Source: an uncultured Prevotellaceae bacterium (GTDB lineage: Bacteria > Bacteroidota > Bacteroidia > Bacteroidales > Bacteroidaceae). From it: a stretch of DNA of 64,000 nucleotides. Under the pieces are notes generated by a model. It had not been told where the DNA came from, did not search any database, and was given only the letters and a program-made list of their open reading frames with translations. The stretch is from assembly GCA_947169115.1 (NCBI GenBank), contig CAMVOK010000010.1, positions 7,091 to 71,090 on the forward strand, read 5' to 3'. The stretch's first letter is position 1. Each line of letters begins with the position of its first letter. Of the stretch, positions 11,155 through 52,732 are shown piece after piece. The translations under genes and the position numbers were made by a program.

Positions 11155-11175
11155 CGTTTATTATTTTTTCGGTAT

Positions 11176-12210
11176 TTACGCCCTCCCCTCGGGGAGGGTT
11201 GGGATGGGGGTTTCGTCCATTATCTTGAACAGTTCTTCGACCGTTTCGGCGCGAAGCATCCGGATGCGGGTTTCGCGGAAGTTAGGAATTCCCTTGAATA
11301 GAGGGGAGGCGGCCAGATGACGACGGCTGTGCAAGATGCCGCGATACTCGCCGAGACGTTCTACGCTGGTCAGCACTTGCTGGCGTAGGACGTTGAGGCA
11401 CCATAGCCCCCCTTCGCTCCCCCCGAGGGGGGAAGAATCGCCTCCCCTCGGGGAGGTTGGGAGGTGGCTGAGGAGGGTTTTTATCTCCTTGAATATCCAA
11501 GGTCTTCCAAAAGTGGCACGACCGACCATTATGGCATCGACTCCGTAGCGTTCGAAGCACTCTTTGGCTCTTTCGGGAGTGGTGATATCGCCGTTGCCGA
11601 TAATGGGAATGTGGATGCGCGGATTGCGCTTTACCTCGCCGATGAGGGTCCAGTCGGCTTCGCCTGTGTACATTTGGCTGCGTGTACGACCATGGATGGT
11701 AAGGGCCTGAATGCCGCAGTCTTGCAGCTGCTCGGCAAGTTCGGTGATGATGAGGTGTTCCTGATCCCAGCCTAAACGAGTCTTTACGGTTACAGGTGTG
11801 TTGGGCACTGCATTTACCACGGCTCGTGTAATTTCCAGCATGAGGGGGATGTTTTGCAGCATTCCTGCTCCAGCCCCTTTCCCAGCTACTCGTTTTACGG
11901 GACAACCGAAGTTGATGTCCAGAATATCGGGATGAGCCTGTTCAACAACAATCTGTGCAGCATCACGCATGGCTTCAACGAAACGTCCATATATCTGTAT
12001 GGCAACAGGACGCTCCTCGTCGCATACCTGTAATTTCTCAATACTACGATTGACTCCTCGAACAAGTGCATCGCTCGACACAAACTCGGAATATACGAGA
12101 TCGGCTCCCATCTGTTTGCACAACAGGCGGAAACCGATGTCCGTCACATCCTCCATTGGGGCGAGGAAGACGGGATAAGGCGTATCAAAGTGAACGGGGC
12201 CGATGTTCAT
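11176..12210 (-). CDS. dusB: tRNA-dihydrouridine synthase (DusB-like) carrying repeat-derived insertions
   Basis: PVFLAPMEDVTDIGFRLLCKQMGADLVYSEFVSSDAL, DINFGCPVKRV and TIHGRTRSQMYTGEADW are Dus TIM-barrel motifs. Its ATG overlaps the upstream mod stop codon (ATGA). Confidence 0.85.
   Translation of the reverse strand: MNIGPVHFDTPYPVFLAPMEDVTDIGFRLLCKQMGADLVYSEFVSSDALVRGVNRSIEKLQVCDEERPVAIQIYGRFVEAMRDAAQIVVEQAHPDILDINFGCPVKRVAGKGAGAGMLQNIPLMLEITRAVVNAVPNTPVTVKTRLGWDQEHLIITELAEQLQDCGIQALTIHGRTRSQMYTGEADWTLIGEVKRNPRIHIPIIGNGDITTPERAKECFERYGVDAIMVGRATFGRPWIFKEIKTLLSHLPTSPRGGDSSPLGGSEGGLWCLNVLRQQVLTSVERLGEYRGILHSRRHLAASPLFKGIPNFRETRIRMLRAETVEELFKIMDETPIPTLPEGRA
11180..11210 (+). repeat. Hairpin/G4 element copy forming the last codons and stop of dusB
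   Basis: ccctcccctcggggagggttgggatggggg. Confidence 0.8.
11406..11466. repeat. Two head-to-head hairpin element copies in frame inside dusB
   Basis: gccccccttcgctccccccgaggggggaag + cgcctcccctcggggaggttgggaggtgg. Encodes SPRGGDSSPLGGSEGG. Confidence 0.8.
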
Positions 12211-14168
12211 AGTGCGTAGGTGGTTTCGTCACCACAGATATTACGAATCTTCATGCGGAGTGGCTTCTGGTCGCACTTGATGGTGGCATCCCAGAAGTCT
12301 TGGGTCTTCTTGCCATTAAGAATGACATAGCCCAAGCGGTCAATCTTCACTTCCGCATCGCTGTGCCAGGGAGCTTGCTTGTCAGCGGTGGAGCAGTCCA
12401 GACTGACCCATTCGATGGTTTCAAGTCCCTCATCGCTTATCTCAATAGGATTGAACGCTTTGCCTTTGGCTATGGACTGCTGCTGACCCTTCATGTTCAC
12501 TTCCTCAATCTTGCGCAGCACACGGTCGCTGTGGAAACTCTTCAGGTCCACTTTCCAGCCTTTGAACAGGTTGTCTTGTGTTTCCGTTAGTTCCCACTCG
12601 ACCTCGTCTTCCACCACCACTTCGTCCAGCACCTGCTTTAGGTCGCGCAGTTCTATGTCGATGATACTACGAGTGTTTTTTTCCTTGATGAACTGTTCTA
12701 TTTCCTCACGATCTGTGATATCGATGTAATATACAATGACGCGCCGTACATCGTCTGGCAGATAAGGCAGTTTATCAATAATGTTGTTCATTTGCGGTTT
12801 GTCGAGCAGACGTGTAGAACTGTCCATCAGGTTAGGCAGATAGACTGGCATCATGCCGTGTTGGGAATGAATGATACCGCCTGCCCAAAAGTCGCTCAGA
12901 CTGTCAAGGAAACACAACCCTTTTATGAGGTGCTTCAATTTGTCCATCGTCTGAACGGGATTGCGATAAAGAGACACACCGTCTTTTACTTCCAGGACAT
13001 CGAACTCTGCTTTGTCAGCCAATAGGCGGTCTCTTACGGTCTGAATGCTATTGATTCCAATGTCGCAGTGGATAAAGTTACGCCCCAACTTATTGGATAC
13101 TGCAGCTGTTACGCCGCTACCACCAAAGAAATCAGCAACAAGCATTCCTTCGTTACTGCTAGCTTTGATGATACGCTCCAATAAAGCCTCAGGCTTCTGA
13201 GTGGCATAGTCAACACGTTCTTCTGCTTGGGAGTTTACAGCATTTACATCAGTCCAAATATCATCAAGAGGTATACCCTCGGTTTCGTCAAGATATACTT
13301 TTAGGCGCATTCCTCCGGATGCAGTATAATAAATTTTGTTTTCTTTCTTTAATTGTTCTATAGTAGCTTGTGTTGTAGCTGTTCCCAAGAAGGCATCCTT
13401 GAATCTACGTTCTTTGCTATCAATTACTTCTACATGAGAAAATCTTTGTTCGATGTACTCATCGCTATAAGGCAAATATTGCGTATTATATAGGAATTCA
13501 TCACTTTTACCATAAACAAGAATGTTATCGTGGTTCTTTCCCATTGCATTTTTTCCCTTAAACCCACTAGATGTTTGTCGTTTCCATGTAACGTCATTAA
13601 TGAAGTTCTCTTCCCCAAAGATTTCATCCATCAAGATCTTTACATAGTGAACGATATGCCAATCCAAATGCACATAGATACTTGCCTCATCGCTCATGAT
13701 GCTCTTCATTGCCATCAGGTTCTCGTACATCCAATTGAGATAACGCTCTTTGTCCCATACGTCACCATACATCTTTTCCTCGAAGGCGCGTAGTTCCTCA
13801 ATGTCAAGTTCGCTTTCTGCCTGGGCAATAGCCGCTGCCACCTTGGGATTACGACGGATATACACCTTCTTGGCATAGTCGGCACCGCTGGCAAAGGGCG
13901 GGTCAACATATATGAGGTCAACAAAGATGCCTTTGTCTCTGAGATAAGCACAAGCCGACACACACTCGCCACGAATAACCAGATTGTTGGGATTCTGTCC
14001 AATCTGCTCTTTCAACTCCATCTCATAGAGGGGCATACCTCTCTGCACGCGCTCAATGACTTGGTCATTGTCACGATAACGCAACACCCGCTTGGTGCGT
14101 ACAAAATTGTCTAATATGGCCTGTCCTTCAAGCGTATTGGGGAAATAGGGAACATATTTAATAGCCAT
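12207..14168 (-). CDS. Type III-like restriction-modification methyltransferase (Mod, beta-class N6A/N4C MTase) with an extra ~250-aa C-terminal region
   Basis: Motif IV LIYVDPPFASGADY (aa ~85) comes before motif I VADFFGGSGVTAAV (aa ~340). That order is the beta-class arrangement of Type III Mod proteins. Confidence 0.85.
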   Translation of the reverse strand: MAIKYVPYFPNTLEGQAILDNFVRTKRVLRYRDNDQVIERVQRGMPLYEMELKEQIGQNPNNLVIRGECVSACAYLRDKGIFVDLIYVDPPFASGADYAKKVYIRRNPKVAAAIAQAESELDIEELRAFEEKMYGDVWDKERYLNWMYENLMAMKSIMSDEASIYVHLDWHIVHYVKILMDEIFGEENFINDVTWKRQTSSGFKGKNAMGKNHDNILVYGKSDEFLYNTQYLPYSDEYIEQRFSHVEVIDSKERRFKDAFLGTATTQATIEQLKKENKIYYTASGGMRLKVYLDETEGIPLDDIWTDVNAVNSQAEERVDYATQKPEALLERIIKASSNEGMLVADFFGGSGVTAAVSNKLGRNFIHCDIGINSIQTVRDRLLADKAEFDVLEVKDGVSLYRNPVQTMDKLKHLIKGLCFLDSLSDFWAGGIIHSQHGMMPVYLPNLMDSSTRLLDKPQMNNIIDKLPYLPDDVRRVIVYYIDITDREEIEQFIKEKNTRSIIDIELRDLKQVLDEVVVEDEVEWELTETQDNLFKGWKVDLKSFHSDRVLRKIEEVNMKGQQQSIAKGKAFNPIEISDEGLETIEWVSLDCSTADKQAPWHSDAEVKIDRLGYVILNGKKTQDFWDATIKCDQKPLRMKIRNICGDETTYAL

Positions 14169-39011: not shown

Positions 39012-41675
39012 ATGAAGCAAATAAATTCAGGATATACGATGAAAAGCCGCATGATGGCCCTCTTGGCCATGGTTGTTGTCTGCTCAACTGTACAGGCACA
39101 GATGATTAACTTCAAGTTCAAAATCAAGGAAGTGAAGGAGGAGGTTCAGTCTAATGGTAAATCCGTTAAGATGGAAAACGACGTGAACTCGGGACTCGAA
39201 GTCTTCACTTTTGGTGTTGAAGCCAGAGCTCGTGCCGCAGCTAAGCGTTTCATTGAAGGCTACGAAATCAAAAAGGGTGAAGGCGACTGCTATGACCAGA
39301 AGAAAGCTAAAGGTGGTGTTGCCAATAACGTAAAGGGTGATACACGTGGCTATGCTGTACTTACTGTGGCAGGTTCAAAGAGTGATACGGCCATAGTTAT
39401 CCCCATTGCAAAATATTACGAAGAGAGCACCAATACCGTTACCTATTCCGATGTGATTGATGGTGGTAAGGTGTTGAAGACGGTGCAGAAGAGTGGAAAG
39501 CAGAAGGCCCGTGGCGATAAGCAGGGTTCGGCTCGCATCTATGGCAACAAGGTGGTTGTAAAGGGTCAGATTCGTTTGGATTCGGCTTATACCCGTGACG
39601 ATGCCCGTTTCGTAGGTGCTCCCCGCTTGATGATGGTAGATACTGATGGCAAGGGAAAGGATAAGGTGGTTCACTATTTTGACCCTGTTGTGCTTGATGG
39701 GCAACCTTACGAGGAAACGCAATATCGTCGTATGCAATTCAATCTTGCAAATGACAAACTAAACAAGAACAAAATCAATCGTGATCGTCAGGTTATCCGT
39801 AGTGAAGTCTATCATGATGGTTTCAGGGGGCAGGACTCTATCTTTATGGAAACGGGGGAACCTTACCTCTTCAACTTCCAGGAAGAATACAGTCCCATTG
39901 ACCGTAATAAAAAATACAATGCTCGTTTGCATCGTTGGTATGAGGATTATAACAAGGTTTATAAAGACGACCCTGATTACTTGTTCTGGGATGGAAACTT
40001 GCAAGACCCCATGCAGTTCCTTGACTGGAGTAGTGCTCGTTCCATGCTTGATATAGACCCCTTGGAATACAAAAAGGAGGAAAAGTCTGAGGTTTCCAAG
40101 GCCAATAGGTCGGTAAAGCTGGAGTTTGAAGTGGGTAAAACCAGTTTGAACCAAGAGGACTCGTTGACTATGGCTGAGTTGAGTGGATTGAAAGATATGC
40201 TACAGCGTTGGTATAACGATGAAAATGCTGAGGTGCGTGATGTATATGTGAAGGGTTATGCTTCTCCCGAGGGTGGGTATGCTACCAATAAGACCTTAGC
40301 TGCTGGCCGTTCGCAAACGTTGATGGGAATTCTGCGTGGCCAAGCTGGTGCCAGCAAGGTAAAGGGTTGGCATCACGATTCGGATGTGGTAAGCTGGGAC
40401 GAGGTGGCAGACAGTCTGGAACAGAAGATAGCCACGCCAGAAGCTATTGAAGCTGCACAGGCGATCCGCTTGGTGACTTCGGCTACCAAAGATCGTGATG
40501 CTCAGGCACGACAAATTCAGTCGGCTCCTTATTTTGGCTATGTCAAGGACAATGCCTTGAAGATGGTACGTCGTGTGAATATCACTATTGAGTATGTAGC
40601 AACGCGTATCCTTACCCCCGAGGAAATCTATGAGAAATACGTGAAGGATGATCCCAAGGGCTATCGTGAGGGTATTGGTGAAAAAGACTACGAATATTAC
40701 CATCTGATGAATCGACTTTATGCAGAAGAGCGTTGGGATGAACTCTATACCATCTCGAAGGCTGCCTATAAGAATGTGGAAATCACGGGCGAACAGGCCA
40801 CGAAGGCTCGCCGTAAGCTAAACCCAGATTGGGCTCCCGAAAAAACGGACTCTGTGGATAAGTACTACATCGAGGAAGATAGGCAAAGCCCCTACTTCCG
40901 TCCTTATTCGCTGGCAGCTTACTATCTCAGTATATGCAAGTTGCGTAAGGAGGAAGCTGATACCCTATTGCTGGCCGACTATCTGGACGACCACCGCAAA
41001 CGCATCAATAAGAATCCCGACCTTGGTCAGGGCTTTGGTATCTGGAACGACCCCGCTATTGTGGTTAATCACATTCTGATGTTCTGCTATGCCAAGAACT
41101 TTGACCGCGCTGAGTATTATGCCCTCAACTGGCTACCCGATGACCCCAATGACCCGAACTACCAGACATTCCATAATCTGAGTATGTTTGTGGGCTGTCT
41201 GAATGGACGTGAGAGCGATCCCGAGGTGCAGGATTACATTAAATCGACATCTCCTATGAACCATGCCGTCATAGCTGCCGCTCAGGATAGCGAGGCTGGT
41301 TATAAGGAGGCACTGGAGATACTGAACGACCCTGATAAAGTGGACAATGATGAACCCAAGGTGCATTACTTGAAAGCTATCTGTCGTTTCCGTTTGAATC
41401 CCTTCAAGGATTACGAGCATCCTGCTTATCCTTCCTATAATATTTATGATAAAGACGGTGATGAGGAGACTGGCAAACGTGATTTTGCTGCGCCCATGTT
41501 GGAAGCCTTGCGCTTGAATCCAGATTATCTGAAACAATTGGAAGTAGATGGTTACTTTAATGATGCCTATCGTCGTATGGTAAAATACTTCTGGTATCGT
41601 TTGCAGCAGGGTGCAGAAATGCCCGACATCTGTCGTGAGTATGATGAACTGCGTCAGAAGTACACCGTGAAATAA
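39012..41675 (+). CDS. Secreted 887-aa protein with a degenerate OmpA-like motif and a helical-repeat C-terminal half (envelope operon gene 1)
   Basis: Signal MKSRMMALLAMVVVCSTVQAQ (alternative ATG at 39039). VYVKGYASPEGGYATNKTLAAGRSQTLMGIL (nt ~40248-40322) resembles the OmpA_C G.TD..G....N..LS..RA core. The C-terminal half is TPR-like and helical. Confidence 0.55.
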   Translation: MKQINSGYTMKSRMMALLAMVVVCSTVQAQMINFKFKIKEVKEEVQSNGKSVKMENDVNSGLEVFTFGVEARARAAAKRFIEGYEIKKGEGDCYDQKKAKGGVANNVKGDTRGYAVLTVAGSKSDTAIVIPIAKYYEESTNTVTYSDVIDGGKVLKTVQKSGKQKARGDKQGSARIYGNKVVVKGQIRLDSAYTRDDARFVGAPRLMMVDTDGKGKDKVVHYFDPVVLDGQPYEETQYRRMQFNLANDKLNKNKINRDRQVIRSEVYHDGFRGQDSIFMETGEPYLFNFQEEYSPIDRNKKYNARLHRWYEDYNKVYKDDPDYLFWDGNLQDPMQFLDWSSARSMLDIDPLEYKKEEKSEVSKANRSVKLEFEVGKTSLNQEDSLTMAELSGLKDMLQRWYNDENAEVRDVYVKGYASPEGGYATNKTLAAGRSQTLMGILRGQAGASKVKGWHHDSDVVSWDEVADSLEQKIATPEAIEAAQAIRLVTSATKDRDAQARQIQSAPYFGYVKDNALKMVRRVNITIEYVATRILTPEEIYEKYVKDDPKGYREGIGEKDYEYYHLMNRLYAEERWDELYTISKAAYKNVEITGEQATKARRKLNPDWAPEKTDSVDKYYIEEDRQSPYFRPYSLAAYYLSICKLRKEEADTLLLADYLDDHRKRINKNPDLGQGFGIWNDPAIVVNHILMFCYAKNFDRAEYYALNWLPDDPNDPNYQTFHNLSMFVGCLNGRESDPEVQDYIKSTSPMNHAVIAAAQDSEAGYKEALEILNDPDKVDNDEPKVHYLKAICRFRLNPFKDYEHPAYPSYNIYDKDGDEETGKRDFAAPMLEALRLNPDYLKQLEVDGYFNDAYRRMVKYFWYRLQQGAEMPDICREYDELRQKYTVK

Positions 41676-41729: not shown

Positions 41730-43385
41730 ATGGGACTAAAAAAGGTATTAGCAATTTCACTTTTTGCCGTTAGCGGTAACGTAGTGCTTGCACAGACAGA
41801 GTACACCCCTGAGTATTTGGCGAAAACAGAAAACTACCTCGGTCGTCTTGGCCATGGGCGTGACAGCATAGAGGCACGTAAGTTCTTCGAAATGTATGTG
41901 AAGAACTTTAACACTGCTTGGAGTAGCGATAAAATAGAAGACTGGCGTGAGTGTTATCGTCCGTGGAAAGAGAGCATGGTCTTGGCACCCTACGCTTCGT
42001 ATAACCTGACCAATACGGGTGGTGGTATGCGTATGCTTACCAAGTTAATGGAAAATGAAACAGATACCGTGCTGCGTTACGTCTATTTCAAGGATTTGAT
42101 GAAGACTGACCAGTTCCGTATCCGCAATTTGGAGAAGTTGAATGCTGTCCCTAAAGATGGTGGAGAGGCGCGTATTCCTCTTTCGAAGGGTAGCGCCCTG
42201 ATGTGGAAGGCCCATCATTACCACACATTGGGAGGTGATTCGGCCTATGTTCCTGACCGTGTTTATCGCAAGGATTCTGCTTACCAGTATTTTGTAGATG
42301 CCTTTGCCCAGATTCGTAACGAAAACGTGGGTACAGACAATGAAATCAATCCTGGATACCTTGGAGAGTATTTCCGTGTATGTCGTGACTTATATATGTC
42401 AGACAAGGAAAAATACACGGAGCAGTTCTTGACGGACTATACCACCTGTTTGGAGACCTGTGACAAGATGATGGCTGTGTATAAAGATAAGGATACGCTA
42501 AACTGGAGTTATTATGCAGGTGTGCGTAACAATACGCAGATTTGGTTCAATGAAACTGGTGCTGGCAGTGCGGGTAATATAGCTGATTTCTACGGCTCGC
42601 GTATCGATTCACTGAAAGATAATCCTACGGCATTGAAGAATGCCATACATCTGATGATGACCAACGATTCGTTGTTGAACATGCCCATTCTGTATAAGGC
42701 ATGTCGCTATGCGTATGAACAAAATCCAGACTTCGAGAATAGTATTGGTATGGCCATGGAGGCAAAGATGAAACATAAGAGAGACTCTGCCATCTACTAT
42801 TTCGGACGTGCTTTTGATTTGGCTAAAAACGATAAGGAACGTTATGTGGCTACCTATCAGATGGGAATGGGCTTGTTTGTGGAAGCTATGCCAGAAGCCC
42901 CGACCAAGGAAGAACTGGATGCTTTGAGAGCTGTTTCAAGGTCGGAGTATGATGCAGTTGTTCAAGAGTATAACGAGGCGTTGGATGCTTGGCGTTCCCG
43001 TCAGAACGTGGCCGCTAACAAAATGGGTGAAGCTTTGACTTATGCCAATCGTGCTGGTATGGAAGGTCAGTATCTGGCACCCGTCTATTATAGTATGGCT
43101 CAGGCTTATCGTAGGGCACGTACATCAGAATCGCTAAGTAACGCCGAAACTTGTCTGCACAATGCAGTGGCAGTATATCCAGCCTTTACGCAAGGAAACA
43201 ACCTCATTGAGACGGAGCAGGCTAACATTTTAGCAGCCAAGGAAGGTATTGCTCGTGACGAGGAAAAAAGACAAGCCCGTCTGGCACTTATAAAATCGGC
43301 TGAGGCTAAGAGTGCCGAACAGAGGAAATACGAGGAATACCTGCGTAAGAAGAAGGAAGAGGAAGCCTTCTGGGGTAAGAAATAA
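41730..43385 (+). CDS. Secreted helical (TPR-like) protein with a K/E-rich tail (envelope operon gene 2)
   Basis: Signal MGLKKVLAISLFAVSGNVVLAQ. No catalytic motif. Tail EEKRQARLALIKSAEAKSAEQRKYEEYLRKKKEEEAFWGKK. Confidence 0.5.
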   Translation: MGLKKVLAISLFAVSGNVVLAQTEYTPEYLAKTENYLGRLGHGRDSIEARKFFEMYVKNFNTAWSSDKIEDWRECYRPWKESMVLAPYASYNLTNTGGGMRMLTKLMENETDTVLRYVYFKDLMKTDQFRIRNLEKLNAVPKDGGEARIPLSKGSALMWKAHHYHTLGGDSAYVPDRVYRKDSAYQYFVDAFAQIRNENVGTDNEINPGYLGEYFRVCRDLYMSDKEKYTEQFLTDYTTCLETCDKMMAVYKDKDTLNWSYYAGVRNNTQIWFNETGAGSAGNIADFYGSRIDSLKDNPTALKNAIHLMMTNDSLLNMPILYKACRYAYEQNPDFENSIGMAMEAKMKHKRDSAIYYFGRAFDLAKNDKERYVATYQMGMGLFVEAMPEAPTKEELDALRAVSRSEYDAVVQEYNEALDAWRSRQNVAANKMGEALTYANRAGMEGQYLAPVYYSMAQAYRRARTSESLSNAETCLHNAVAVYPAFTQGNNLIETEQANILAAKEGIARDEEKRQARLALIKSAEAKSAEQRKYEEYLRKKKEEEAFWGKK

Positions 43386-43432: not shown

Positions 43433-45805
43433 ATGAGATACAGATTCATCATTTTGGTGGCTGCCGTGTGTGGCCTCATGTCTGTGACGGACATAAAGGC
43501 CCAGGTGACGATAAGCCCGGAGGACGAAGCCTTCTTTAAATCACTCTTCCCTCAAAAGGAAGGAGATAATTGGGCCGACACGTACTATCAGGACAAATTC
43601 AAAAACCGACTTTCGTTCCATGCGAACGTAGTGGACTGGGTGCTTACCATGCCCAGTGCGGGTATTGAGTTCGACCTGAATAACAAGTTTGTCTTCGACG
43701 AGCACAAGAAGCGTACATGGAAGACCAATCGTACATTGTTGCTCTTTGGTAAGTACAATGGTCACACCAAGCATACAGTGGCTCCGAAGTTTGTCTTCGA
43801 CGTGGCTGCTGTTCGTTTGGAGTTTCGCAAGTATTGGCGTACGGGTAAAGTGGGATTGAATAATAACTACCATGAGGACTATCGTACGATGGACCTGTAC
43901 AAGCCCGATACGTTGTGGCGCAAGGTGAAGACGACCGATGAGTTTGGTGATACAATAATCAAGAGGGAGGCTTACTATAGCAGTAAAGACTCGGCAAGAA
44001 TAAACGAGGGCAAGGAGTTTGAGGGCGATCCAAATCGTGGACGTTTCTCAAATATGTATGAGAATGCCCGTCGTTTGGCCAGTACCCGCACGATAGAGAA
44101 TGCCCGCAACTGGCGTGCTTACTATCTGGGTGCATTTGCCGGTTGGGACAAGTATTCGTGGTGCCTGAGTAAGAAAGGTGAACAGGGAACTTTACTCTCC
44201 GTGGGTGCAACCTTCGGTTGGAGTGTACCCCTGTTGGCTACACACGACAAGGATTATGGTCTTGACCTTGATTTAGGTCTGAATGTCGGTGTTCCTGCTG
44301 CCAAGTATGAGGGATATAAGTATGTAGATGTGGACAACAATGCATACTATGTACATGACGGTCGCTCGAAGAACGATGGCTGGACCATCAATCCCAAGTA
44401 CATCCTGCGCGACATACACGTGGCACTCGTTTATCGTTTCCGTTCCATCAGCCGTAAGGTCAGCTTGGCTATTGTTGACGATTACCAGAAGCGCATCGAT
44501 GCCTGGAATGAGCGTCAGCGTAAGATGTCGGAAGAGAAACGTCTGATAGAAGAGGAGTGGCAGCGTAGGTTGGAAGAGCAGAAACGTACTGACAAGCACA
44601 ATACCGACTCTCTGTCATGGTACAACTGGCAGCGTAAGGAATATCTGGTGGCCATGAAGGAACTCTATCCCGATCGTCCATGGCAGACTCGCCAAGACAG
44701 TATCGACTATATCCGACTTGTGCTGGGTATCGACACGGTTGACTATGTACGTGTGAAGGCTCGTGAGGATCGTCTGAAGAAGATGCAGGAAGATATGTTG
44801 CGTGACTCACTGGATTGGATTAAGCGTGTGGCCGAACGTGACAGTCTGGGCAAGGCTAAGATTGAACAACGCAAGCAGAAGCGTGCTGAGCGTGATAGTT
44901 TGGACAAGCGCAATGCCTTCATGAAGGATAGTATTGCACACGTAAAGGATAGTCTCGATCAGATTCGCAGGGATAGCATCGGTGCTGTACGCGATAGTGC
45001 TCAGAAGGTCAAGGATGCCGCACGTGATAGCATCCAGGCCATTAAGAATGCTCAACGCGATAGTTTGCAGAAGATTCGTGATGATGAGCGTCGGGCACGC
45101 TTGGCAGAAAAGAAGGCTTTGCAGGACGAACGTGATGCCGAAGAGGCTAAGCGCAAGGCCGAGCAGAAGTTGCGTCAGGATTCTATTGATGCTGAACGTC
45201 GCAAACAGCGTATCGAACAGGAAATGGAACGTAAACAACGTGAGTTTGACGCTGGCGTGAACAAGGATAAGCGCAAGGAAGAGGCTGAGGCTCGGAAGCA
45301 AGCTCGTGAGCGGGATAAGGAAGAAGAGGCTGAGGCTCGTCGCATTGAACAGGAAGCTCAGAAGCGTGCTCGTGAGAACGAGAAACGTATGAGGGCTCAG
45401 GAGGCAGAGAACCGCAAGCAGCGTGAGGCTGAGGAGCAGGAGGAACTGAAAGCAGAGGCTGAAAAGAAGAAAGCCGAAGCTGATGCCATGAAGGAAAAGA
45501 AAGCTCAGGAAGCAGAGGCAAAGAAGGCTGAGGCTGATGCCAAAAAGCAGGCTGACAAGGAAGCCAAGGATGCTGAGCGAGCTAAGAAGGAAGCTGAGAA
45601 GGCCGAGGCTGATGCCAAGAAGCAGGCTGACAAGGAAGCCAAGGATGCTGAACGGGCTAAGAGGGAAGCTGAGAAGGCCGAGGCTGATGCCAAGAAGCAA
45701 GCTGAACGTGAGGCCAAAGAGGCAGCAAAACGTGCAGAGCAAGAGCGAAAGGCTGCTGAGAAAGAGGCTGCTAAAGCTGCCAAAGAGGCCAAAACCGAAG
45801 AATAA
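43433..45805 (+). CDS. DUF3575-like outer-membrane beta-barrel fused to a ~450-aa highly charged E/K/R/A helical domain (envelope operon gene 3)
   Basis: Signal MRYRFIILVAAVCGLMSVTDIKAQ. Barrel cues LSFHANVVDWVLTMPSAGIEFDL and VRLEFRKYWR. From aa ~345 the sequence is a continuous charged helix with RDS[LI] repeats and 25-aa EADAKKQADKEAKDAERAKKEAEKA repeats. Confidence 0.6.
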   Translation: MRYRFIILVAAVCGLMSVTDIKAQVTISPEDEAFFKSLFPQKEGDNWADTYYQDKFKNRLSFHANVVDWVLTMPSAGIEFDLNNKFVFDEHKKRTWKTNRTLLLFGKYNGHTKHTVAPKFVFDVAAVRLEFRKYWRTGKVGLNNNYHEDYRTMDLYKPDTLWRKVKTTDEFGDTIIKREAYYSSKDSARINEGKEFEGDPNRGRFSNMYENARRLASTRTIENARNWRAYYLGAFAGWDKYSWCLSKKGEQGTLLSVGATFGWSVPLLATHDKDYGLDLDLGLNVGVPAAKYEGYKYVDVDNNAYYVHDGRSKNDGWTINPKYILRDIHVALVYRFRSISRKVSLAIVDDYQKRIDAWNERQRKMSEEKRLIEEEWQRRLEEQKRTDKHNTDSLSWYNWQRKEYLVAMKELYPDRPWQTRQDSIDYIRLVLGIDTVDYVRVKAREDRLKKMQEDMLRDSLDWIKRVAERDSLGKAKIEQRKQKRAERDSLDKRNAFMKDSIAHVKDSLDQIRRDSIGAVRDSAQKVKDAARDSIQAIKNAQRDSLQKIRDDERRARLAEKKALQDERDAEEAKRKAEQKLRQDSIDAERRKQRIEQEMERKQREFDAGVNKDKRKEEAEARKQARERDKEEEAEARRIEQEAQKRARENEKRMRAQEAENRKQREAEEQEELKAEAEKKKAEADAMKEKKAQEAEAKKAEADAKKQADKEAKDAERAKKEAEKAEADAKKQADKEAKDAERAKREAEKAEADAKKQAEREAKEAAKRAEQERKAAEKEAAKAAKEAKTEE
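45530..45730 (+). repeat. 75-bp tandem repeat (about 2.7 copies) inside the charged-helix coding region
   Basis: gaggctgatgccaa starts at 45530, 45605 and 45680. Units are near-identical and encode 25 aa each. Confidence 0.9.
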
Positions 45806-45838: not shown

Positions 45839-46195
45839 ATGCGTTTAAGATATTTCTTAGGATTGTGTGCCGCACTGTTGTTTACGGCTTGCAGTGTGGG
45901 GGTGGATGTCGAATACGACAACACGATGTCGCCCTGCGATATTCGGATAAAGTGGGATGTGGATCCTGCTGCCGTAGTCAAAGGCAAGGTGTTATATACC
46001 CGCGTTGGGGCTACAACTACGGAATCGGTGGATTTCAGTGCTCATTATCGCTATCGTGACAATGGCAGTTTTGAAACACGCATCTTGATGCCCAAGAAGG
46101 TGAAGAAAACAGTAACCGTACAGGTGGCTGATGGAACATACGCAGCTACAATAGAGAATGATGGCTCGGATCGTGTAATTAAGGTAACATTATAG
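45839..46195 (+). CDS. Small lipoprotein (118 aa, envelope operon gene 4)
   Basis: Lipobox MRLRYFLGLCAALLFTAC. Beta-rich, with no known motif. Confidence 0.55.
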   Translation: MRLRYFLGLCAALLFTACSVGVDVEYDNTMSPCDIRIKWDVDPAAVVKGKVLYTRVGATTTESVDFSAHYRYRDNGSFETRILMPKKVKKTVTVQVADGTYAATIENDGSDRVIKVTL

Positions 46196-46203
46196 GTATT
46201 GGT

Positions 46204-46776
46204 ATGAAAGTTTTGATGAGACGTCTGTTTTTGACTACGATTATAAGTCTTTCTGCATTTGGTACGGCAAGGGCTCAGATGCTTGCGCTGAAGACCGATG
46301 CTCTGCCTTATGTGGCATTTGCTCCCAATTTGGGTGCGGAGCTTGTGACGAGTAACAAGACAAGTGTGACGCTGGAGGCCGTGGTGGCTCTGCATTCCTT
46401 CGGTACAAACATGAAGGCAGCAGCTGTTTCTCCAGAATTCCGTTACTACTTCCATGGCCGTCCTATGACACGTGAGTTTATAGGTTTCAGCGTGGTGGGT
46501 GCTACCTACAAATGGTACAACGATGATGGTAAGACGTTTAAGGGAAATGTCGGTGGATTCGGTCTGACATTTGGTTACGTATGGCGCCTGGGAGTCAAGC
46601 AGCGTTGGAACATGGAAGCCCGTGGTGGAATTGGACTCTACCGTTACAATCAGCAGTCGCGCTATGCTTGGGAGGGTTCTCAGGATGAATTCCCAGAACG
46701 CGGTTGGGTCGTGCTGCCCTATAAAGTAGGATTGGCTTTCAGTTACATTCTTCCCACGGAGAAGAAAAAGAAGTAA
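46204..46776 (+). CDS. DUF3575-type small outer-membrane beta-barrel protein (envelope operon gene 5)
   Basis: Signal peptide, then LALKTDALPYVAFAPNLGAELV...VSPEFRYYF...FGLTFGYVW. This alternating-hydrophobic strand pattern is typical of the DUF3575 family. Confidence 0.65.
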   Translation: MKVLMRRLFLTTIISLSAFGTARAQMLALKTDALPYVAFAPNLGAELVTSNKTSVTLEAVVALHSFGTNMKAAAVSPEFRYYFHGRPMTREFIGFSVVGATYKWYNDDGKTFKGNVGGFGLTFGYVWRLGVKQRWNMEARGGIGLYRYNQQSRYAWEGSQDEFPERGWVVLPYKVGLAFSYILPTEKKKK

Positions 46777-46819: not shown

Positions 46820-49800
46820 ATGTTTACTATAAAATCAAGATATGTTTGTGTGCTCACCCTCCTCTTTGGAGCATTCGTGACGGATGCAAGGGGAGAGAGT
46901 TTACCAGACCAACCAAAGGAGATGCCTGCCGACTCTGTTTCGGCGAGCACGGGAAGTGTATCGACACGGCGTGCTCCTATCGACCCGTTCATGTACAGGG
47001 TTCAGAATCGTCATCTGGAGAAAGGAGCCGACTTCTATTCCGACAGCATCAAGTGGACAGACCATATTTCTCTTGGCCTGTTTACTGGCCCTGTGGTTCA
47101 TGGTGGGCATGTGAGTTCTATGACTCTGGGTTCGCGCATCAACTTTGGTCGCCCCATCGGTGTGATTGCTTCATTCCAGTTCAGTCGTCTGCATGGTGCA
47201 CGTTTGATATACCAGAACAATCTGTTTAAGAACAACTATCGTATCGACGGTTCGCTCAATACTCATGAATTGGGTGCTGGTTATATGTTTAACTTCACCA
47301 ATTACTTCAAGGGCTATGATCCCAACAAGCGTTTTAATGTGTTGGCTACAGCTACGGCATTTGCTGATTTTACTAAGACTAAATTTGACGGAAAGAGACG
47401 CGTAGGAGCCCGTGGTGAGTTTGGTCTGTTGTTCAACTATCGTGTATTGCGTAACCTGTCTGTATTTGCTGAACCTTATATCGGCCTTACAACCGACGAT
47501 TACGACCATGACCTTACTCCCCATCGTTATGACTTCCTTGGCGGTCTGCGTGCCGGTGTTGCTACTAACGGTGCAACAAAGTCGTTCTTCGAACATGTAC
47601 GGAACAGTAAGAATAACCTCTATCAGCCCAAGTTCTGGGGTCAGCACTTCTTCTTTGGTGCCAGTGGTGGACGCATCTGGTCGAATGCCGATAAGGATCC
47701 TATACATGGCAAGATGTCAGCTGAGTCTCACGTATTCTTAGGTTATAGATTCTCACCTGCTCATGCTTTACGTTTCCAGGCCACATACTTTAAGACGCCA
47801 GAGAACATCGAGCGTAAGCATCACGTGATGGGTGAATTGGACTACATGATTAACTTCACCAACATGTGGCGTGGTTATGACCCCAAGCGTCGTTTCCTCG
47901 TATCGGGAATCCTCGGTATGGGTGCACGCTATCTTGAGGATCCTGGTAAAGATGATGTTGTTGTTCCCATGGCGGTGGCAGGTCTTGGATTTAACTACCA
48001 TCTGACTCCGCAGATTAGTTTCTTCGCTGAGCCTTATGGTGGGTATGCTTTAGGACGTAAGGGTGCGAAGAATACGATTTTTGGTGGTATTCGTGGAGGT
48101 GTTCAATTTGACTTTATAGATACTTACACCTACATGCCTCATTATGCCCTTACTACCCATGAGATGGAGGTAGCTTCGAAGTGGCAGATGAATCCGATGT
48201 CTCACGTCTTCTATGGTGCTAGTCTTGGATCGCAGGCTGTGCATAGCCGTCCAAATAATAACGAATTTACGATGCCTTTTAATGCTTTTATAGGGTATCG
48301 CTTTACTCCTGTACAGTCGTTGCGATTCATGGGATCCTACATCAAGACAGATGAGGATATTGTCCGTGGCAAGCATACGTCTTTTGAATTAGACTATATG
48401 CTCAACTTCTCCAATTTAATCTATGGCTATAAGGAGAATCGCCGCCTGAATGTAACTGGATTTGTCGGTGCGGGTATGCGCAACATTATCAGCGAAGGTA
48501 CGAATGGTAGGCGTGCTGTGATGATAAGTTCTGGTGCCAATGTCTCTTATCGCCTCTACAAAGGTATGAGCCTCTTCTTGGAACCCTATGTGCAGCTGGC
48601 ATACACACAACCTCACCGCTATTATTCGTTTGTTGGAGGTGTAAATGGTGGTGTGATGGTAGATATGGAATATGCAACCATGTATGGCAAACGTCTTGGT
48701 GGCGATTATCAGCCTGACTGGAAAAATGAGGTGTGGCGTCACTTCTTTGTTGGAGGTGGCGGTGGTATAACGGGTGTACACACTCGTGTTTACAAGCACA
48801 TGAAGACTTACCCCATGTTCTTATTAATGGGCTATCGCTTCTCTCCCAATCAGGCTCTGCGTTTGAAGGCTGGATACATCAAGACGGATGAGAACATTGA
48901 CCGCCATCAGCATGTGAGTGCTGAGGTTGATTACATGCTCAACTTCACTAATATGTTTAATCCCTATCGTCCAAATCGTCTGTTGAACGTGATGGGTTAT
49001 TTGGGTGTCGGCGCAAAATATCTTGATAACCTGAAGGATCGTGATGGTATTCTCTCTCCCATGGGAACTATGGGTGTGGACATCGCTCTACGTATCAAAC
49101 CAGGTTTGAGCGTCTTTGCCGAGCCTCATTTGGATATCGCGAAAGCTAAGGATCAGAACTTCTTGTCGATGTATTACGGAGCCAACTTAGGTCTTGTGCT
49201 CAGCTTCGACGAACTGAATGCTTATAGTCCTCGATGGGGTACTCCCACGGCGGAGTGGATTTTCAAACCCTATCAGCGTCTCTTCTTCGGAGGCAGTGCT
49301 GGTTACTTGCGTACTCAGCGTGTGAGCTCCAAGAATCAGGTGCCTGTATCCTTGTTCATGGGTTACCGATTCAATCCCAACCATGCTTTGCGTCTGAGAG
49401 CTACCTATAATAAGACCGATGAGAAGATTAACCGTTCTAACCACGTAGGTGGAAGTCTTGACTATATGTTCAATGCTTCGAATATGATTGCTGGTTATAA
49501 ACCAAATCGTCCTCTTAACCTAATTGGTTTTATTGGTCTTGGTGTTCGTAATGTAGAGGCTGAGAACCTGAAGAGAAACGAGGTGGCACTGGGCTTGATG
49601 GGAAATGCAGGTATGGACATTGCATATCGCGTTACCCGCAATTTGAACATCTTTATAGAACCCTATGTAGGTGGTGTACATTCGCGCAGGACTAAAGAGA
49701 ACGTGAACTTCTTTATGGGTGTAAATGGTGGTTTCGTACTTAACTTACAAGATGTAGACGAGTCCTATCGTGGTGTTAAGACCAATCATAATCCTATCGT

Positions 49801-50923
49801 AGAGGCTTCTTATGGTTGGATGTTCCCCATGCTTACGGGTTCTGGTATGCACAATTCGGGTCTTTCACTTGATGTACGTTTGGGAACCTGGCTTGATCCC
49901 TATTTCGGTGTTCGTGGCTCGTTACTCTTTGAGCACTATGGATATTCTCCCTATTACAGTTCTCAGAAAGACAAAAATAAGGATAAGGATAATGGAAATG
50001 CAAATTCACGTGTAGTGAAGGGGCGTGTCGAAGGCTTGTTTAATCCTCTGAACCTCTCTTCTAACTGGCGTGAAAATGCCGATGAAAAGAAGTTTGAACT
50101 GAATTTGGCTGCTGGTATTGAACTCGGTGTGGCTGATAAGAAGTATGCCATAGGCAAGGGCGATGATAAATACGGTGTCTATGGTATCACATTCGCAGCC
50201 CAGGCTTTGTATAAAGTAAACCCCAATACAGCCATCTTCATTGAGCCTCGCTACGAACACATGGGTGCATGGTTTGTAGGTAGTGGTAAGACCGTGAAAT
50301 ATCTGGGTGACTTTAAGCATGATAATATTGCTACGATTAGTGGTGGTGTGCGTGTCATACGTGGAACGGCTGAGCAACGTGACGATGAACGCCGTCTCAA
50401 CTTTGAGCAGTCCATCTTCATGATGGCCAATGTCGGTGGCTACAAGGGCTTGGGCTACTACAAGAGAGAAAATGGTGGACGCCTAGGTAAGTTTGGTGGT
50501 CTTTCACTCGGTTTCTTGATTACCCCGGTTCATGGTATTAAGTTCAATGTTCAGCCTTCTTGGTATAAGGTGAAGGGTGGTGCAAAGCCCTATAACTATA
50601 CGCTTATGGACTACCGCCTTTCCTACCTTCTCAACTTCAGCAATCTCTACCAGAGTCCAGCTTATCGCAAGGTTGATTTCTATTGGCAGGCTGGTGTAGG
50701 TCTCTCCACTATTATCTCATCACCCAAGGGATGGAAACGCCGTGCACCAAGTGCATCGCTCGGGTTCTTGGTTGCCTATAACATCAACAAGCACTGGGCT
50801 ATTACCACTGAGCCTCTCGGCCAGTTGGTAGCAAAGAGAAATTTCTTGCCCGGCTACAGTATTAAGCCTCGCATGGCTATGATGAGGGCTGATATCTCTG
50901 TTGGCGCAATGTGGAAGTTCTAA
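46820..50923 (+). CDS. Giant outer-membrane protein made of about seven tandem small beta-barrel modules (envelope operon gene 6)
   Basis: Signal MFTIKSRYVCVLTLLFGAFVTDARG (ATG 46820; the ORF track uses TTG 46787). The module GYRF[ST]P..ALR....Y.KT.E.I.R..HV..E[LV]DYM.NF[TS]N....Y.P.R...V.G..G.G.R recurs in four clear internal copies at ~195-aa spacing, with three more divergent modules flanking them. The protein ends in ...VGAMWKF, a terminal aromatic beta-signal. Confidence 0.7.
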   Translation: MFTIKSRYVCVLTLLFGAFVTDARGESLPDQPKEMPADSVSASTGSVSTRRAPIDPFMYRVQNRHLEKGADFYSDSIKWTDHISLGLFTGPVVHGGHVSSMTLGSRINFGRPIGVIASFQFSRLHGARLIYQNNLFKNNYRIDGSLNTHELGAGYMFNFTNYFKGYDPNKRFNVLATATAFADFTKTKFDGKRRVGARGEFGLLFNYRVLRNLSVFAEPYIGLTTDDYDHDLTPHRYDFLGGLRAGVATNGATKSFFEHVRNSKNNLYQPKFWGQHFFFGASGGRIWSNADKDPIHGKMSAESHVFLGYRFSPAHALRFQATYFKTPENIERKHHVMGELDYMINFTNMWRGYDPKRRFLVSGILGMGARYLEDPGKDDVVVPMAVAGLGFNYHLTPQISFFAEPYGGYALGRKGAKNTIFGGIRGGVQFDFIDTYTYMPHYALTTHEMEVASKWQMNPMSHVFYGASLGSQAVHSRPNNNEFTMPFNAFIGYRFTPVQSLRFMGSYIKTDEDIVRGKHTSFELDYMLNFSNLIYGYKENRRLNVTGFVGAGMRNIISEGTNGRRAVMISSGANVSYRLYKGMSLFLEPYVQLAYTQPHRYYSFVGGVNGGVMVDMEYATMYGKRLGGDYQPDWKNEVWRHFFVGGGGGITGVHTRVYKHMKTYPMFLLMGYRFSPNQALRLKAGYIKTDENIDRHQHVSAEVDYMLNFTNMFNPYRPNRLLNVMGYLGVGAKYLDNLKDRDGILSPMGTMGVDIALRIKPGLSVFAEPHLDIAKAKDQNFLSMYYGANLGLVLSFDELNAYSPRWGTPTAEWIFKPYQRLFFGGSAGYLRTQRVSSKNQVPVSLFMGYRFNPNHALRLRATYNKTDEKINRSNHVGGSLDYMFNASNMIAGYKPNRPLNLIGFIGLGVRNVEAENLKRNEVALGLMGNAGMDIAYRVTRNLNIFIEPYVGGVHSRRTKENVNFFMGVNGGFVLNLQDVDESYRGVKTNHNPIVEASYGWMFPMLTGSGMHNSGLSLDVRLGTWLDPYFGVRGSLLFEHYGYSPYYSSQKDKNKDKDNGNANSRVVKGRVEGLFNPLNLSSNWRENADEKKFELNLAAGIELGVADKKYAIGKGDDKYGVYGITFAAQALYKVNPNTAIFIEPRYEHMGAWFVGSGKTVKYLGDFKHDNIATISGGVRVIRGTAEQRDDERRLNFEQSIFMMANVGGYKGLGYYKRENGGRLGKFGGLSLGFLITPVHGIKFNVQPSWYKVKGGAKPYNYTLMDYRLSYLLNFSNLYQSPAYRKVDFYWQAGVGLSTIISSPKGWKRRAPSASLGFLVAYNINKHWAITTEPLGQLVAKRNFLPGYSIKPRMAMMRADISVGAMWKF

Positions 50924-50932
50924 TTTATCAAA

Positions 50933-52732
50933 ATGCAAGACATACGCAATATTGCTATTATCGCTCATGTCGACCATGGTAAAACTACCTTGGTCGACAA
51001 GATGCTTATGGAGGGGAACCTGTTTCGCGACAATCAGCAGACGGGTGAGTTGATGTTGGACAATAACGAGCTGGAGCGTGAGCGCGGTATTACCATCCTC
51101 TCGAAGAATGTTAGCATAAACTACAAGGGTACAAAGATAAATATTATCGATACCCCGGGGCACTCAGATTTTGGCGGTGAGGTAGAGCGTGTTCTAAATA
51201 TGGCAGATGGTTGTCTTCTTTTGGTGGATGCTTTTGAAGGTCCAATGCCCCAGACACGTTTCGTATTGCGCAAGGCACTAGAGATAGGTCTAAAACCTAT
51301 TGTTGTGGTAAATAAGGTGGACAAATTAAACTGCCGACCAGAGGAAGTTTATGAAATGGTCTTTGACCTTATGTTCGACCTTGGCGGTACCGAAGAACAA
51401 CTTGACTTTCCTGTTATCTACGGTTCTGCAAAGAACGGATGGATGGGCCCCGACTATAGTAACCCCACGGGGGATATAAAGTATTTACTCGACCAAATTC
51501 TGGAACATATACCCGCTCCTAATCAGTTGGAGGGTACGCCTCAAATGCTTATTACGTCACTTGACTATTCTATCTATACAGGACGTATTGCCGTGGGACG
51601 TGTCCATCGTGGCACCATCCGCGAGGGTATGAATATCACCATTGCTCATCGCGATGGTTCGATGGAAAAGACCAAGATAAAGGAACTGCACACCTTTACG
51701 GGTATGGGGCAGGCCAAAATCTCTGAAGTAACCAGTGGCGACATCTGTGCTATCATCGGCCTTGAACATTTCGAGATTGGTGATACTATCTGTGACTTTG
51801 AGAATCCCGAACCTCTGCCACCGATTAGCATTGATGAACCCACAATGTCCATGCTTTTCACCATCAACGACTCTCCTTTCTTCGGAAAGGAAGGCAAATA
51901 CTGCACCAGCCGTCACATCCATGAGCGTCTGCAAAAGGAACTGGAGAAGAATCTGGCTTTGCGTGTAGAGCAGCCCGAAGGATTCAATGACCGTTGGATC
52001 GTTTCTGGTCGTGGTGTACTTCATCTCTCTGTACTTATCGAAACCATGCGCCGTGAGGGCTACGAACTTCAGGTTGGTCAGCCACAAGTCATCTATAAGG
52101 ATATTGACGGTGTGAAGTGTGAGCCCATAGAGGAATTGACCATCAATGTGCCTGAGGAGTTCTCCAGTAAGATGATAGATATGGTAACTCGTCGTAAGGG
52201 TGAGATGACTAGCATGGAGACGCAAGGATCGCGCGTGAACATCGAGTTTAACATACCTTCGCGTGGTATCATCGGTCTGCGTACTAATGTTCTTACGGCC
52301 AGTCAGGGTGAGGCTATTATGGCTCACCGCTACAAGGAATATCAGCCTTATAAGGGTGACATACAGCGTCGTATCAATGGTTCAATGATTGCTCTCGAAG
52401 GTGGTACGGCCTATGCTTATGCCATCAACAACCTGCAAGACCGCGGTTCTTTCTTCATCGACCCACAGACTGAGGTATATGCTGGTCAGGTAGTAGGTGA
52501 GCATGTTCATGAAAACGACCTTGTAGTTAATGTCTGCAAGGCCAAGCAACTTACGAACATGCGTGCTTCGGGTAGCGATGAGAAGGTTCGTATTATTCCT
52601 CCCATTGTTTTCTCCTTGGAGGAAGCTCTCGAATACATAAAGGAGGATGAATACGTAGAGGTAACCCCAAAATCCATGCGTCTGCGTAAGATTATCCTCG
52701 ATCATTTGGAGAGAAAACGTGCAAATCGTTAA
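50933..52732 (+). CDS. typA: Translational GTPase TypA/BipA
   Basis: [36 protein letters not shown] and NKVD. Length and C-terminal domain fit BipA. Confidence 0.93.

Follow-up and report, generated by a model that had tools for sequence, protein, structure and literature searches.

We analyzed a window of 64,000 nucleotides (nt), i.e. the whole stretch at positions 7,091 to 71,090 of the forward strand of contig CAMVOK010000010.1 (assembly GCA_947169115.1) from an uncultured Prevotellaceae bacterium. The gene of interest, at 46820..50923, very probably encodes a poly-8 multibarrel outer-membrane protein (OMP), a class described by Solan, Pereira, Lupas, Kolodny and Ben-Tal (PNAS 2021; PMC8346858; Solan et al. 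below). All coordinates are those of the window, and all genes described lie on its + strand. The ATG at 46820 lines up with the start of all orthologues in the alignment and the stop codon is at 50921-50923, giving 1367 amino acids (aa) plus stop. The gene assignment is based on the translation, 15 collinear orthologues, and seven domains detected by a family hidden Markov model (HMM).

The N-terminus, MFTIKSRYVCVLTLLFGAFVTDA followed by RG, looks like a Sec signal peptide (~aa 1-23, 46820..46888) with its n-, h-, and c-regions, as read by eye, and the chain would be exported through Sec. A leader follows (aa 24-82, 46889..47065), which is modeled with low confidence and is poorly conserved (35% identity to orthologues). 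The predicted local distance difference test (pLDDT) of the AlphaFold2 (AF2) models described below is <50 in the signal peptide and the leader (across aa 1-78). At the other end, the chain terminates in ...VGAMWKF.

Seven homologous modules in one chain

Seven modules (M1 to M7), each with eight strands, follow the leader. Barrel 1 (aa 83-250, 47066..47569) is divergent. It is followed by barrel 2 (aa 277-431, 47648..48112), barrel 3 (aa 463-615, 48206..48664), barrel 4 (aa 642-795, 48743..49204), and barrel 5 (aa 821-975, 49280..49744). Barrel 6 (aa 992-1180, 49793..50359) is the most divergent one and has longer loops, and barrel 7 (aa 1198-1367, 50411..50920) ends with G-A-M-W-K-F. The strands of all the barrels were assigned by DSSP on the AF2 models (on both models in the case of barrels 4 and 5), and barrel 7 is additionally backed by the motif statistics given below. 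The family HMM detects all seven modules with E-values of 2e-29 to 5e-53 (M1, 4e-34; M2, 5e-53; M3, 3e-44; M4, 5e-44; M6, 5e-30; M7, 2e-29), each match covering nearly the whole of the 184-position profile, and gives no further match in a six-frame translation of the window.

The repeats are also visible as landmark motifs with a period of ~177-195 aa: GYRF at aa 308, 492, 671, and 848; N[FA][ST]N at aa 158, 345, 529, 708, 885, and 1272; and F.EP at aa 216, 402, 586, 766, 945, and 1140. Self-BLAST of the whole protein returned the identity alignment alone, and the repeats were assessed by module-against-module BLASTP instead. M2-M5 match each other with E-values of 1e-29 to 1e-40 and 37-40% identity, while the matches of the outer modules are weaker (M1 with M2-M5, ~1e-11; M7 with M3, 7e-9; M6 with M5, 1e-5). 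At the DNA level, only remnants of 20-25 nt around the NF[TS]N codons recur, 531-561 nt apart, indicating that the duplications are old.

Strand topology and barrel closure

AF2 models were built for aa 1-983 and aa 623-1367 from alignments of 14 sequences (mean pLDDT, 70.5 and 75.1; predicted template modeling score, 0.51 and 0.56, respectively). DSSP assigns exactly eight strands of 10-20 residues to each module, 56 strands in all, and places short helices within the inter-module segments. OMPs with an even number of strands have both termini in the periplasm as a standard rule, and connections 1, 3, 5, and 7 of each module should therefore face outward. Among 13 orthologues, the predicted outward loops L1-L4 (2-17 residues) are 24-29% identical and the predicted periplasmic turns T1-T3 (T1, 4 residues; T2, 12-17, usually 13; T3, 2-4) are 53-55% identical, with 49% for the strands and 40% for the inter-barrel linkers. 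The linkers, counted from the last strand of one module to the first strand of the next, comprise 26, 31, 26, 25, 16, and 17 residues and hold invariant Trp, Tyr, and Pro residues in addition to the short helices. The loops are short and variable, which argues against a large adhesin-type surface display. T2 should be noted, since it is unusually long (13 residues), includes a short helix, and is the site of the best conserved motif, NF[TS]N...GY.PNR. Repetition of this conserved, presumably periplasmic turn seven times in the chain suggests that it may serve for the docking of a periplasmic partner.

Contacts within the modules were predicted by mean-field direct coupling analysis (DCA) of 952 modules (effective number, Meff, 921) out of 959 drawn from 168 family proteins, performed on core columns in the zero-sum gauge with the gap state excluded. 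The top couplings form antiparallel ladders between all consecutive strands (S1-S2, S2-S3, S3-S4, S4-S5, S5-S6, S6-S7, and S7-S8) and an antiparallel S1-S8 ladder (columns 26-174 and 30-172). Cross-lumen pairs are also found at columns 62-149 (S3-S7), 85-131 (S4-S6), 28-147 (S1-S7), and 52-110 (S2-S5). Such contacts between non-neighboring strands require a narrow closed barrel. Since DCA of single modules cannot separate a contact of S1(k) with S8(k) from that of S8(k) with S1(k+1), DCA was also run on 788 concatenated pairs of consecutive modules. The S1-S8 maxima inside the two modules, 1.79 and 1.24, both exceed the 99.9th percentile of all pairs (1.16), whereas the maximum for S8(k)-S1(k+1) is 0.55, at the noise level (99th percentile, 0.52). 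Intra-module pairs account for 183 of the top 200 couplings.

The columns facing the lumen are polar or occupied by glycine: G30 (93%), G52 (90%), R62 (89%), D85 (67%), G110 (97%), G133 (79%), Q135 (58%), E149 (89%), and G172 (98%). The Arg residue in the 'ALR' motif and the Glu residue in the 'F.EP' motif are the coupled buried pair R62-E149. The columns in between, which face outward, hold L, V, I, A, or F and have a mean hydropathy of +2 to +3.8. This polarity is that of a lipid-embedded, OmpA-like barrel and is opposite to that of a soluble barrel. It is thus strongly supported that the modules are seven separate, autonomous 8-stranded outer-membrane barrels.

In a Foldseek search with the five-module model, only outer-membrane barrels were matched, the best E-values being those of LptD, TonB-dependent transporters, and OmpG. 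The template modeling (TM) scores of these matches are 0.07-0.28 and the root mean square deviations (rmsd) are 23-43 Å despite significant 3Di E-values. A query of five modules ranks long barrels by 3Di similarity and cannot demonstrate closure. With these values, a global superposition on a large single barrel (LptD, TonB-dependent transporters, or porins) is excluded.

Profile matches of the modules

A profile of 47 modules matches Neisseria NspA, an 8-stranded barrel (PDB 1p4t), with an E-value of 0.0018, profile positions 16-157 being aligned with chain residues 16-155. The other PDB matches of this profile are a porin fragment, a designed transmembrane barrel, EstA, and CarO. The profile of the seven window modules matches CarO alone (E 0.75). 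The whole protein scores 29.7 bits with PF13505 (OMP_b-brl, of the MBB clan) against a gathering cut-off of 28.7 bits, M5 being the sole contributor to this score, and PF13505 is precomputed in five of the 15 orthologues. No match to OmpA_C (PF00691) is found in the barrel-chain protein. Two candidate affiliations were rejected. The type IX secretion system protein PorG (NF052316) scores 14.3 bits, for M1 alone, versus the required 130 bits, and DUF3575 (PF12099) matches neither the protein nor any module at E ≤ 10, with hhalign probabilities of 0.4-1.7% for the module profiles versus the family of the neighboring DUF3575 gene.

An earlier sequence-only reading of this DNA had described about seven tandem homologous modules, each being a small membrane barrel of its own, in a chain ending in an aromatic C-terminal β-signal. 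The HMM and mutual BLASTP matches, the eight AF2 strands per module together with DCA closure within modules and hydrophobic outward faces, and the translated end VGAMWKF bear this description out, and the short DNA remnants agree with the old, diverged duplication that it had assumed. Its module of ~195 aa with 8-10 strands holds as a modular repeat, but the size and the strand range have to be corrected to ~180 aa and exactly eight strands. The affiliation of the modules with DUF3575 that it had suggested has to be abandoned; DUF3575 is a separate gene immediately upstream.

Orthologues and family size

A search of 5.8 billion proteins yielded 15 collinear orthologues, one of them 99% identical and the other 14 with 31-55% identity and ~100% query coverage. 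With lengths of 1357-1424 aa, they stem from assemblies of NCBI, ENA, and Logan. Four independent metagenome-assembled genomes (MAGs) share the gene together with its operon, and the gene-bearing loci belong to rumen or gut MAGs of Bacteroidaceae and Prevotellaceae. The typA gene next to the barrel-chain gene is 95-96% identical to those of these MAGs, while the barrel protein is just 52-53% identical, indicating that the barrel gene is among the fast-evolving genes of the region.

The wider family was collected by searching 1.84 billion cluster representatives with the profile of the seven window modules. At E ≤ 1e-3, 782 clusters (50% identity) were obtained, of which 177 remain at E ≤ 1e-30; the best 150 of the 782 clusters all have 2-15 matched stretches. 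A recount with the family HMM, of which the 184 match columns were fixed by hand, gave 959 modules in 168 family proteins, 2-15 modules each. Chains of five (55 proteins), seven (47), and four modules (33) are the most frequent, followed by those of three (12), nine (8), and six (4); two proteins each have eight and eleven modules, and one each has 2, 10, 12, 14, and 15. Most of the 782 clusters are unlabelled; wherever a relative has a taxonomic label, it comes from a MAG of Bacteroidaceae or Prevotellaceae, from Prevotella micans, or from Coprobacter. The named relatives carry only the annotation 'hypothetical protein'.

In the profile search, the three proteins P0021 (2889 aa), P0023 (2559 aa), and P0022 (2427 aa) have 15, 13, and 12 matched stretches, respectively. 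The largest family proteins have 11-15 modules by the local recount, exceeding the 2021 maximum of 11. In P0019 from Prevotella micans (2244 aa), six barrels are ~380 aa apart, a spacing that implies a further domain of ~200 aa between the barrels. The orthologue at locus L004 (P0011, 997 aa, 10001-12991), in a closely related Prevotellaceae MAG with 96%-identical typA and the same operon, is a five-barrel version in which M1, M2, M6, M7, and a single M3-like module are kept, two central repeats having recently been lost there or gained in the window lineage.

β-Signals of internal and terminal modules

S8 ends in the motif G-x-x-Phi-x-Phi (Phi, hydrophobic residue) in 97% of the terminal and 82% of the internal modules; at any other anchor column, the motif occurs in ≤40% of modules. 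Its aromatic form, G..[FYW].[FYW], is found in 79% of terminal modules versus 20% of internal ones, and the C-terminal residue is Phe in 132 of the 168 family proteins. In the window protein, S8 ends in the aromatic form in M2 (GVQFDF) and M7 (GAMWKF) and in the hydrophobic form in M3, M4, and M5, and neither form is seen in M1 and M6. Whether a multibarrel chain needs one β-signal or one per barrel is a question left open by Solan et al. (PMC8346858). The contrast between terminal and internal modules bears on this question without settling it.

The operon and the conserved cassette

The barrel-chain gene is the last in a same-strand run with gaps of 9-55 nt. The run contains a gene for an 887-aa secreted protein (39012..41675) in which a segment with weak similarity to OmpA_C (aa ~372-436) is combined with a helical C-terminal part resembling tetratricopeptide repeats (TPR). 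Next to it is a gene for a 551-aa secreted protein (41730..43385), which is helical by eye, has no Pfam or NCBIfam match, and is conserved at the related loci L001-L004. The following 790-aa protein (43433..45805) consists of a DUF3575-like N-terminal barrel (weak PF12099 match) and a long K/E/A-rich coiled-coil tail, and is conserved in L001-L004 and L007. A weakly conserved 118-aa putative lipoprotein with an LFTAC lipobox (45839..46195) and a stand-alone small DUF3575 barrel of 190 aa (46204..46776; PF12099, E 4e-31) precede the barrel chain. The whole run is conserved in L001-L004.

In the 790-aa protein, of which the DUF3575-like barrel occupies the N-terminal third, a 75-nt tandem repeat at 45491-45705 (2.5-2.9 copies, 80-94% matches) lies in the coiled-coil tail and encodes AEADAKKQADKEAKDAERAKKEAEK-form repeats. 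A coiled-coil tail of this length, several hundred residues, is by itself unusual for a barrel.

A conserved cassette of a DUF3575 barrel, a TPR protein of 650-890 aa that weakly matches OmpA_C, and then the barrel chain is complete in 9 of 10 loci with readable upstream sequence; L010 is a 3-kb contig almost devoid of such sequence. The stand-alone DUF3575 gene adjoins the poly-8 genes in L001-L009, including L005, where it is upstream of the poly-8 gene. Homologues of the 887-aa protein adjoin the poly-8 genes in L001-L004, L006, and L007, as judged from sequence matches. The distant relatives in L006-L009 (22-24% identity, 4-6 modules) have the arrangement of a DUF3575 gene (171-190 aa), a gene for a 659-815-aa protein, and the barrel chain. 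In L006 and L007, the middle protein is a homologue of the 887-aa protein by sequence (E 2e-18); in L008 and L009, it was assigned by its position and by CarbopepD_reg_2 and TPR matches. No protease gene is present in the conserved cassette.

The 887-aa protein alone gives no match against the PDB. A sub-threshold OmpA (PF00691) match occurs at the same place in all seven tested members of its family (best E 0.013), and all six PDB matches of a profile of the seven sequences are OmpA_C-like, likewise below threshold (E 0.06-0.67). One member of the family has clear CarboxypepD_reg and TPR domains. The segment at aa ~372-436 of the window protein, ...VKGYASPEGGYATNKTLAAGRSQTL..., resembles the peptidoglycan-binding core of OmpA_C, and may represent a divergent OmpA_C subfamily beyond the current Pfam. 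The length of this partner loosely follows the number of modules, being ~660-690 aa with four modules and 840-890 aa with seven; the trend comes from ~7 related loci and is not counted as evidence. L004, with five modules and a partner of at least ~860 aa (tblastn), is a counter-example.

Downstream of the run, typA/bipA (50933-52732) begins 10 nt past the stop codon of the barrel gene, and the two genes are likewise neighbors in L001, L002, and L004. This gene for a translational GTPase may be co-transcribed with the outer-membrane operon. All listed long open reading frames between 31.7 and 57.6 kb lie on the + strand, and the GC skew is persistently positive from ~38 to 62 kb, consistent with one replichore and a leading-strand gene bias.

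Proposed architecture and function

We consider it highly likely that the protein, from a rumen member of the Bacteroidales, is a Sec-exported string of seven autonomous, 8-stranded NspA/OmpA-like (OMP_b-brl) barrels connected by periplasmic linkers and belongs to the poly-8 superfamily. Several points weigh against this interpretation and its extension to the partners. The PF13505 match is marginal; taken singly, just M5 (25.1 bits) and M4 (13.5 bits) match, both below the cut-off. The confidence of the AF2 models is moderate with a shallow alignment of 14 sequences, and the models were read as DSSP strings and Foldseek scores, which do not prove barrel closure. DCA pools paralogous modules and thus describes a family average rather than each of the seven modules, M6 especially. 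The predicted topology rests on the general rule for even-stranded OMPs, and the OmpA_C-like assignment of the 887-aa neighbor is below threshold (E 0.013-0.06).

In the proposed architecture, each barrel would close on itself, with a narrow lumen lined by the conserved glycines and the buried Arg-Glu pair. Such lumens would be too narrow and too packed with glycine and charge to conduct, pointing to an anchor or scaffold rather than a pore. We tentatively suggest that the chain acts as a multivalent membrane anchor or scaffold with the co-transcribed DUF3575 barrel(s) and the periplasmic, OmpA_C-like TPR partner, either coupling the membrane to the cell wall or organizing a membrane patch. 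The barrel chain, the DUF3575 barrel(s), and the TPR/OmpA_C-like protein might together form an outer-membrane patch linked to peptidoglycan, in which T2 would dock the partner. The fast-evolving loops would then reflect surface exposure to phages and the host. During assembly, the β-barrel assembly machinery (BAM) would recognize the last barrel by its canonical aromatic signal and the internal barrels by degenerate, hydrophobic variants of that signal.

A more specific and more doubtful version is that the chain is the anchor of an undescribed three-component envelope system of Bacteroidales, consisting of the chain, a DUF3575 barrel, and a peptidoglycan-binding TPR protein. T2 would be the docking site, the number of barrels would set the valency or spacing of the links between outer membrane and cell wall, and, with an aromatic BAM signal on the last barrel only, the internal barrels would be threaded in processively. 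Adhesion through avidity, the idea put forward by Solan et al. (PMC8346858), appears less probable still as the function, being weakened by the short surface loops. The partner cassette also points to an envelope scaffold rather than adhesion, T2 being a possible docking site. Since members of the family abound in Bacteroidales of the gut and rumen, their role could matter for the envelope biology of dominant commensals.

Alternatives to seven separate barrels in one chain

The best surviving alternative to the intact chain, though improbable, is a polyprotein in which the linkers are cleaved after export to release seven single barrels as stoichiometric paralogous OMPs. Each barrel would in principle be insertable alone, given that 82% of internal modules keep G..Phi.Phi. 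However, the scarcity of the aromatic signal in internal modules (20% versus 79% in terminal ones) suggests that the cell does not treat these as free proteins. The linkers, with 40% identity, invariant Trp, Tyr, and Pro residues, and helices, look structural rather than like a protease site, and the conserved cassette is without a protease gene.

Merging of the modules into one or a few larger barrels, such as 16-stranded pairs or a single giant sheet, is somewhat less probable than cleavage. LptD, TonB-dependent transporters, and OmpG do give the best Foldseek E-values, and concatenated small barrels can merge: two OmpX barrels artificially fused through a 2-residue linker gave a larger barrel, according to Arnold et al. 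as cited in PMC8346858. The Foldseek matches nevertheless amount to no geometric fit in TM-score and rmsd, and the linkers here are 16-31 residues long with short helices. The number of modules in the family, 2-15, includes odd values. The sequence-only reading had named a single large barrel as the outcome that would speak against it; the couplings instead place the S1-S8 closure inside the modules (1.79 and 1.24, versus 0.55 for the S8(k)-S1(k+1) position, where no ladder is seen) and include cross-lumen contacts.

Soluble periplasmic or secreted β-barrel or β-sandwich repeats, the second such outcome, are rather remote. Their case draws on the marginal Pfam support, but Gly, Arg, Asp, Gln, and Glu in the lumen and L, V, I, A, and F on the opposite face are the reverse of a soluble barrel and correspond to a lipid-exposed one. 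All the PDB sequence matches are membrane barrels, and the terminal G..[FYW].[FYW] in 79% of the family, with Phe as the last residue in 132 of 168 proteins, points in the same direction. A fusion of adjacent small OMP genes by an assembly or annotation error, also considered in the sequence-only reading, is next to negligible, because the 99%-identical protein stems from another data set, 14 full-length collinear orthologues (31-55%; 15 in all, from independent assemblies) and the same operon in four independent MAGs exist, and the 20-25-nt DNA repeats are too short for misassembly.

Comparison with known systems

Solan et al. collected 12,643 multibarrel proteins of 34 architectures. A poly-8 superfamily among them is confined to Bacteroidetes, mainly Prevotella and Bacteroides, and comprises 289 proteins of 2-11 barrels each (PMC8346858). 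This superfamily includes (8)7 forms and shows lineage-specific deletions and amplifications, its linkers have a median length of 22 ± 13 residues, and the authors explicitly leave open in what way BAM inserts a chain of several barrels (PMC8346858). The window protein fits this class in its non-overlapping full-length barrel matches, its linkers, its independent contacts, and the taxa of its labelled relatives. Both are tandem 8-stranded barrels in one chain of Bacteroidetes with linkers of ~20 residues, contact prediction backs independent barrels in both, and the barrel number varies in both families; the repeat loss at L004 is the same sort of event as the module deletion and amplification described for the class. 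The present family extends to 15 modules and 782 clusters in today's databases. The novelty and rarity of multibarrel chains implied in the sequence-only reading are therefore not tenable, since Bacteroidetes poly-8 multibarrels were described computationally in 2021 (PMC8346858) and this family alone fills 782 clusters at 50% identity.

Our literature search found no later work on the evolution, structure, or function of poly-8 proteins or on the function of DUF3575, and the literature searched contains no solved structure, localization experiment, or known function for the poly-8 type. In the main text of PMC8346858, 'DUF3575' has no occurrence, and neither DUF3575/TPR-OmpA_C-like partners nor a difference between terminal and internal β-signals is mentioned. 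Modest additions of the present analysis are the cassette of partner genes, the conservation of T2, and the β-signal contrast. The locus is a clean, well-conserved seven-barrel case, making the open poly-8 questions testable.

Among single-barrel proteins, NspA, the N-terminal domain of OmpA, and OmpX share with the window modules eight antiparallel strands, a hydrophobic exterior, and a polar non-conducting lumen with buried charge pairs, as well as the C-terminal aromatic signal, variable loops, and short periplasmic turns. Unlike these proteins, the window protein has seven copies per chain, and T2 is long (13 residues), conserved, and helix-containing. Further differences are the short surface loops (2-17 residues) and the absence of an OmpA_C domain from the barrel chain. 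The DUF3575 (PF12099) barrels are similar to the modules in size (~180 aa) and predicted fold class and are encoded in the same operon, but have no detectable sequence relationship to them. YjbH/GfcD-type proteins and PagP-LptD (PMC8346858) likewise have more than one membrane barrel per chain. They pair two different barrels of 8-26 strands, belong to known pathways, and are found in Proteobacteria, whereas the window protein is a homo-repeat of one barrel.

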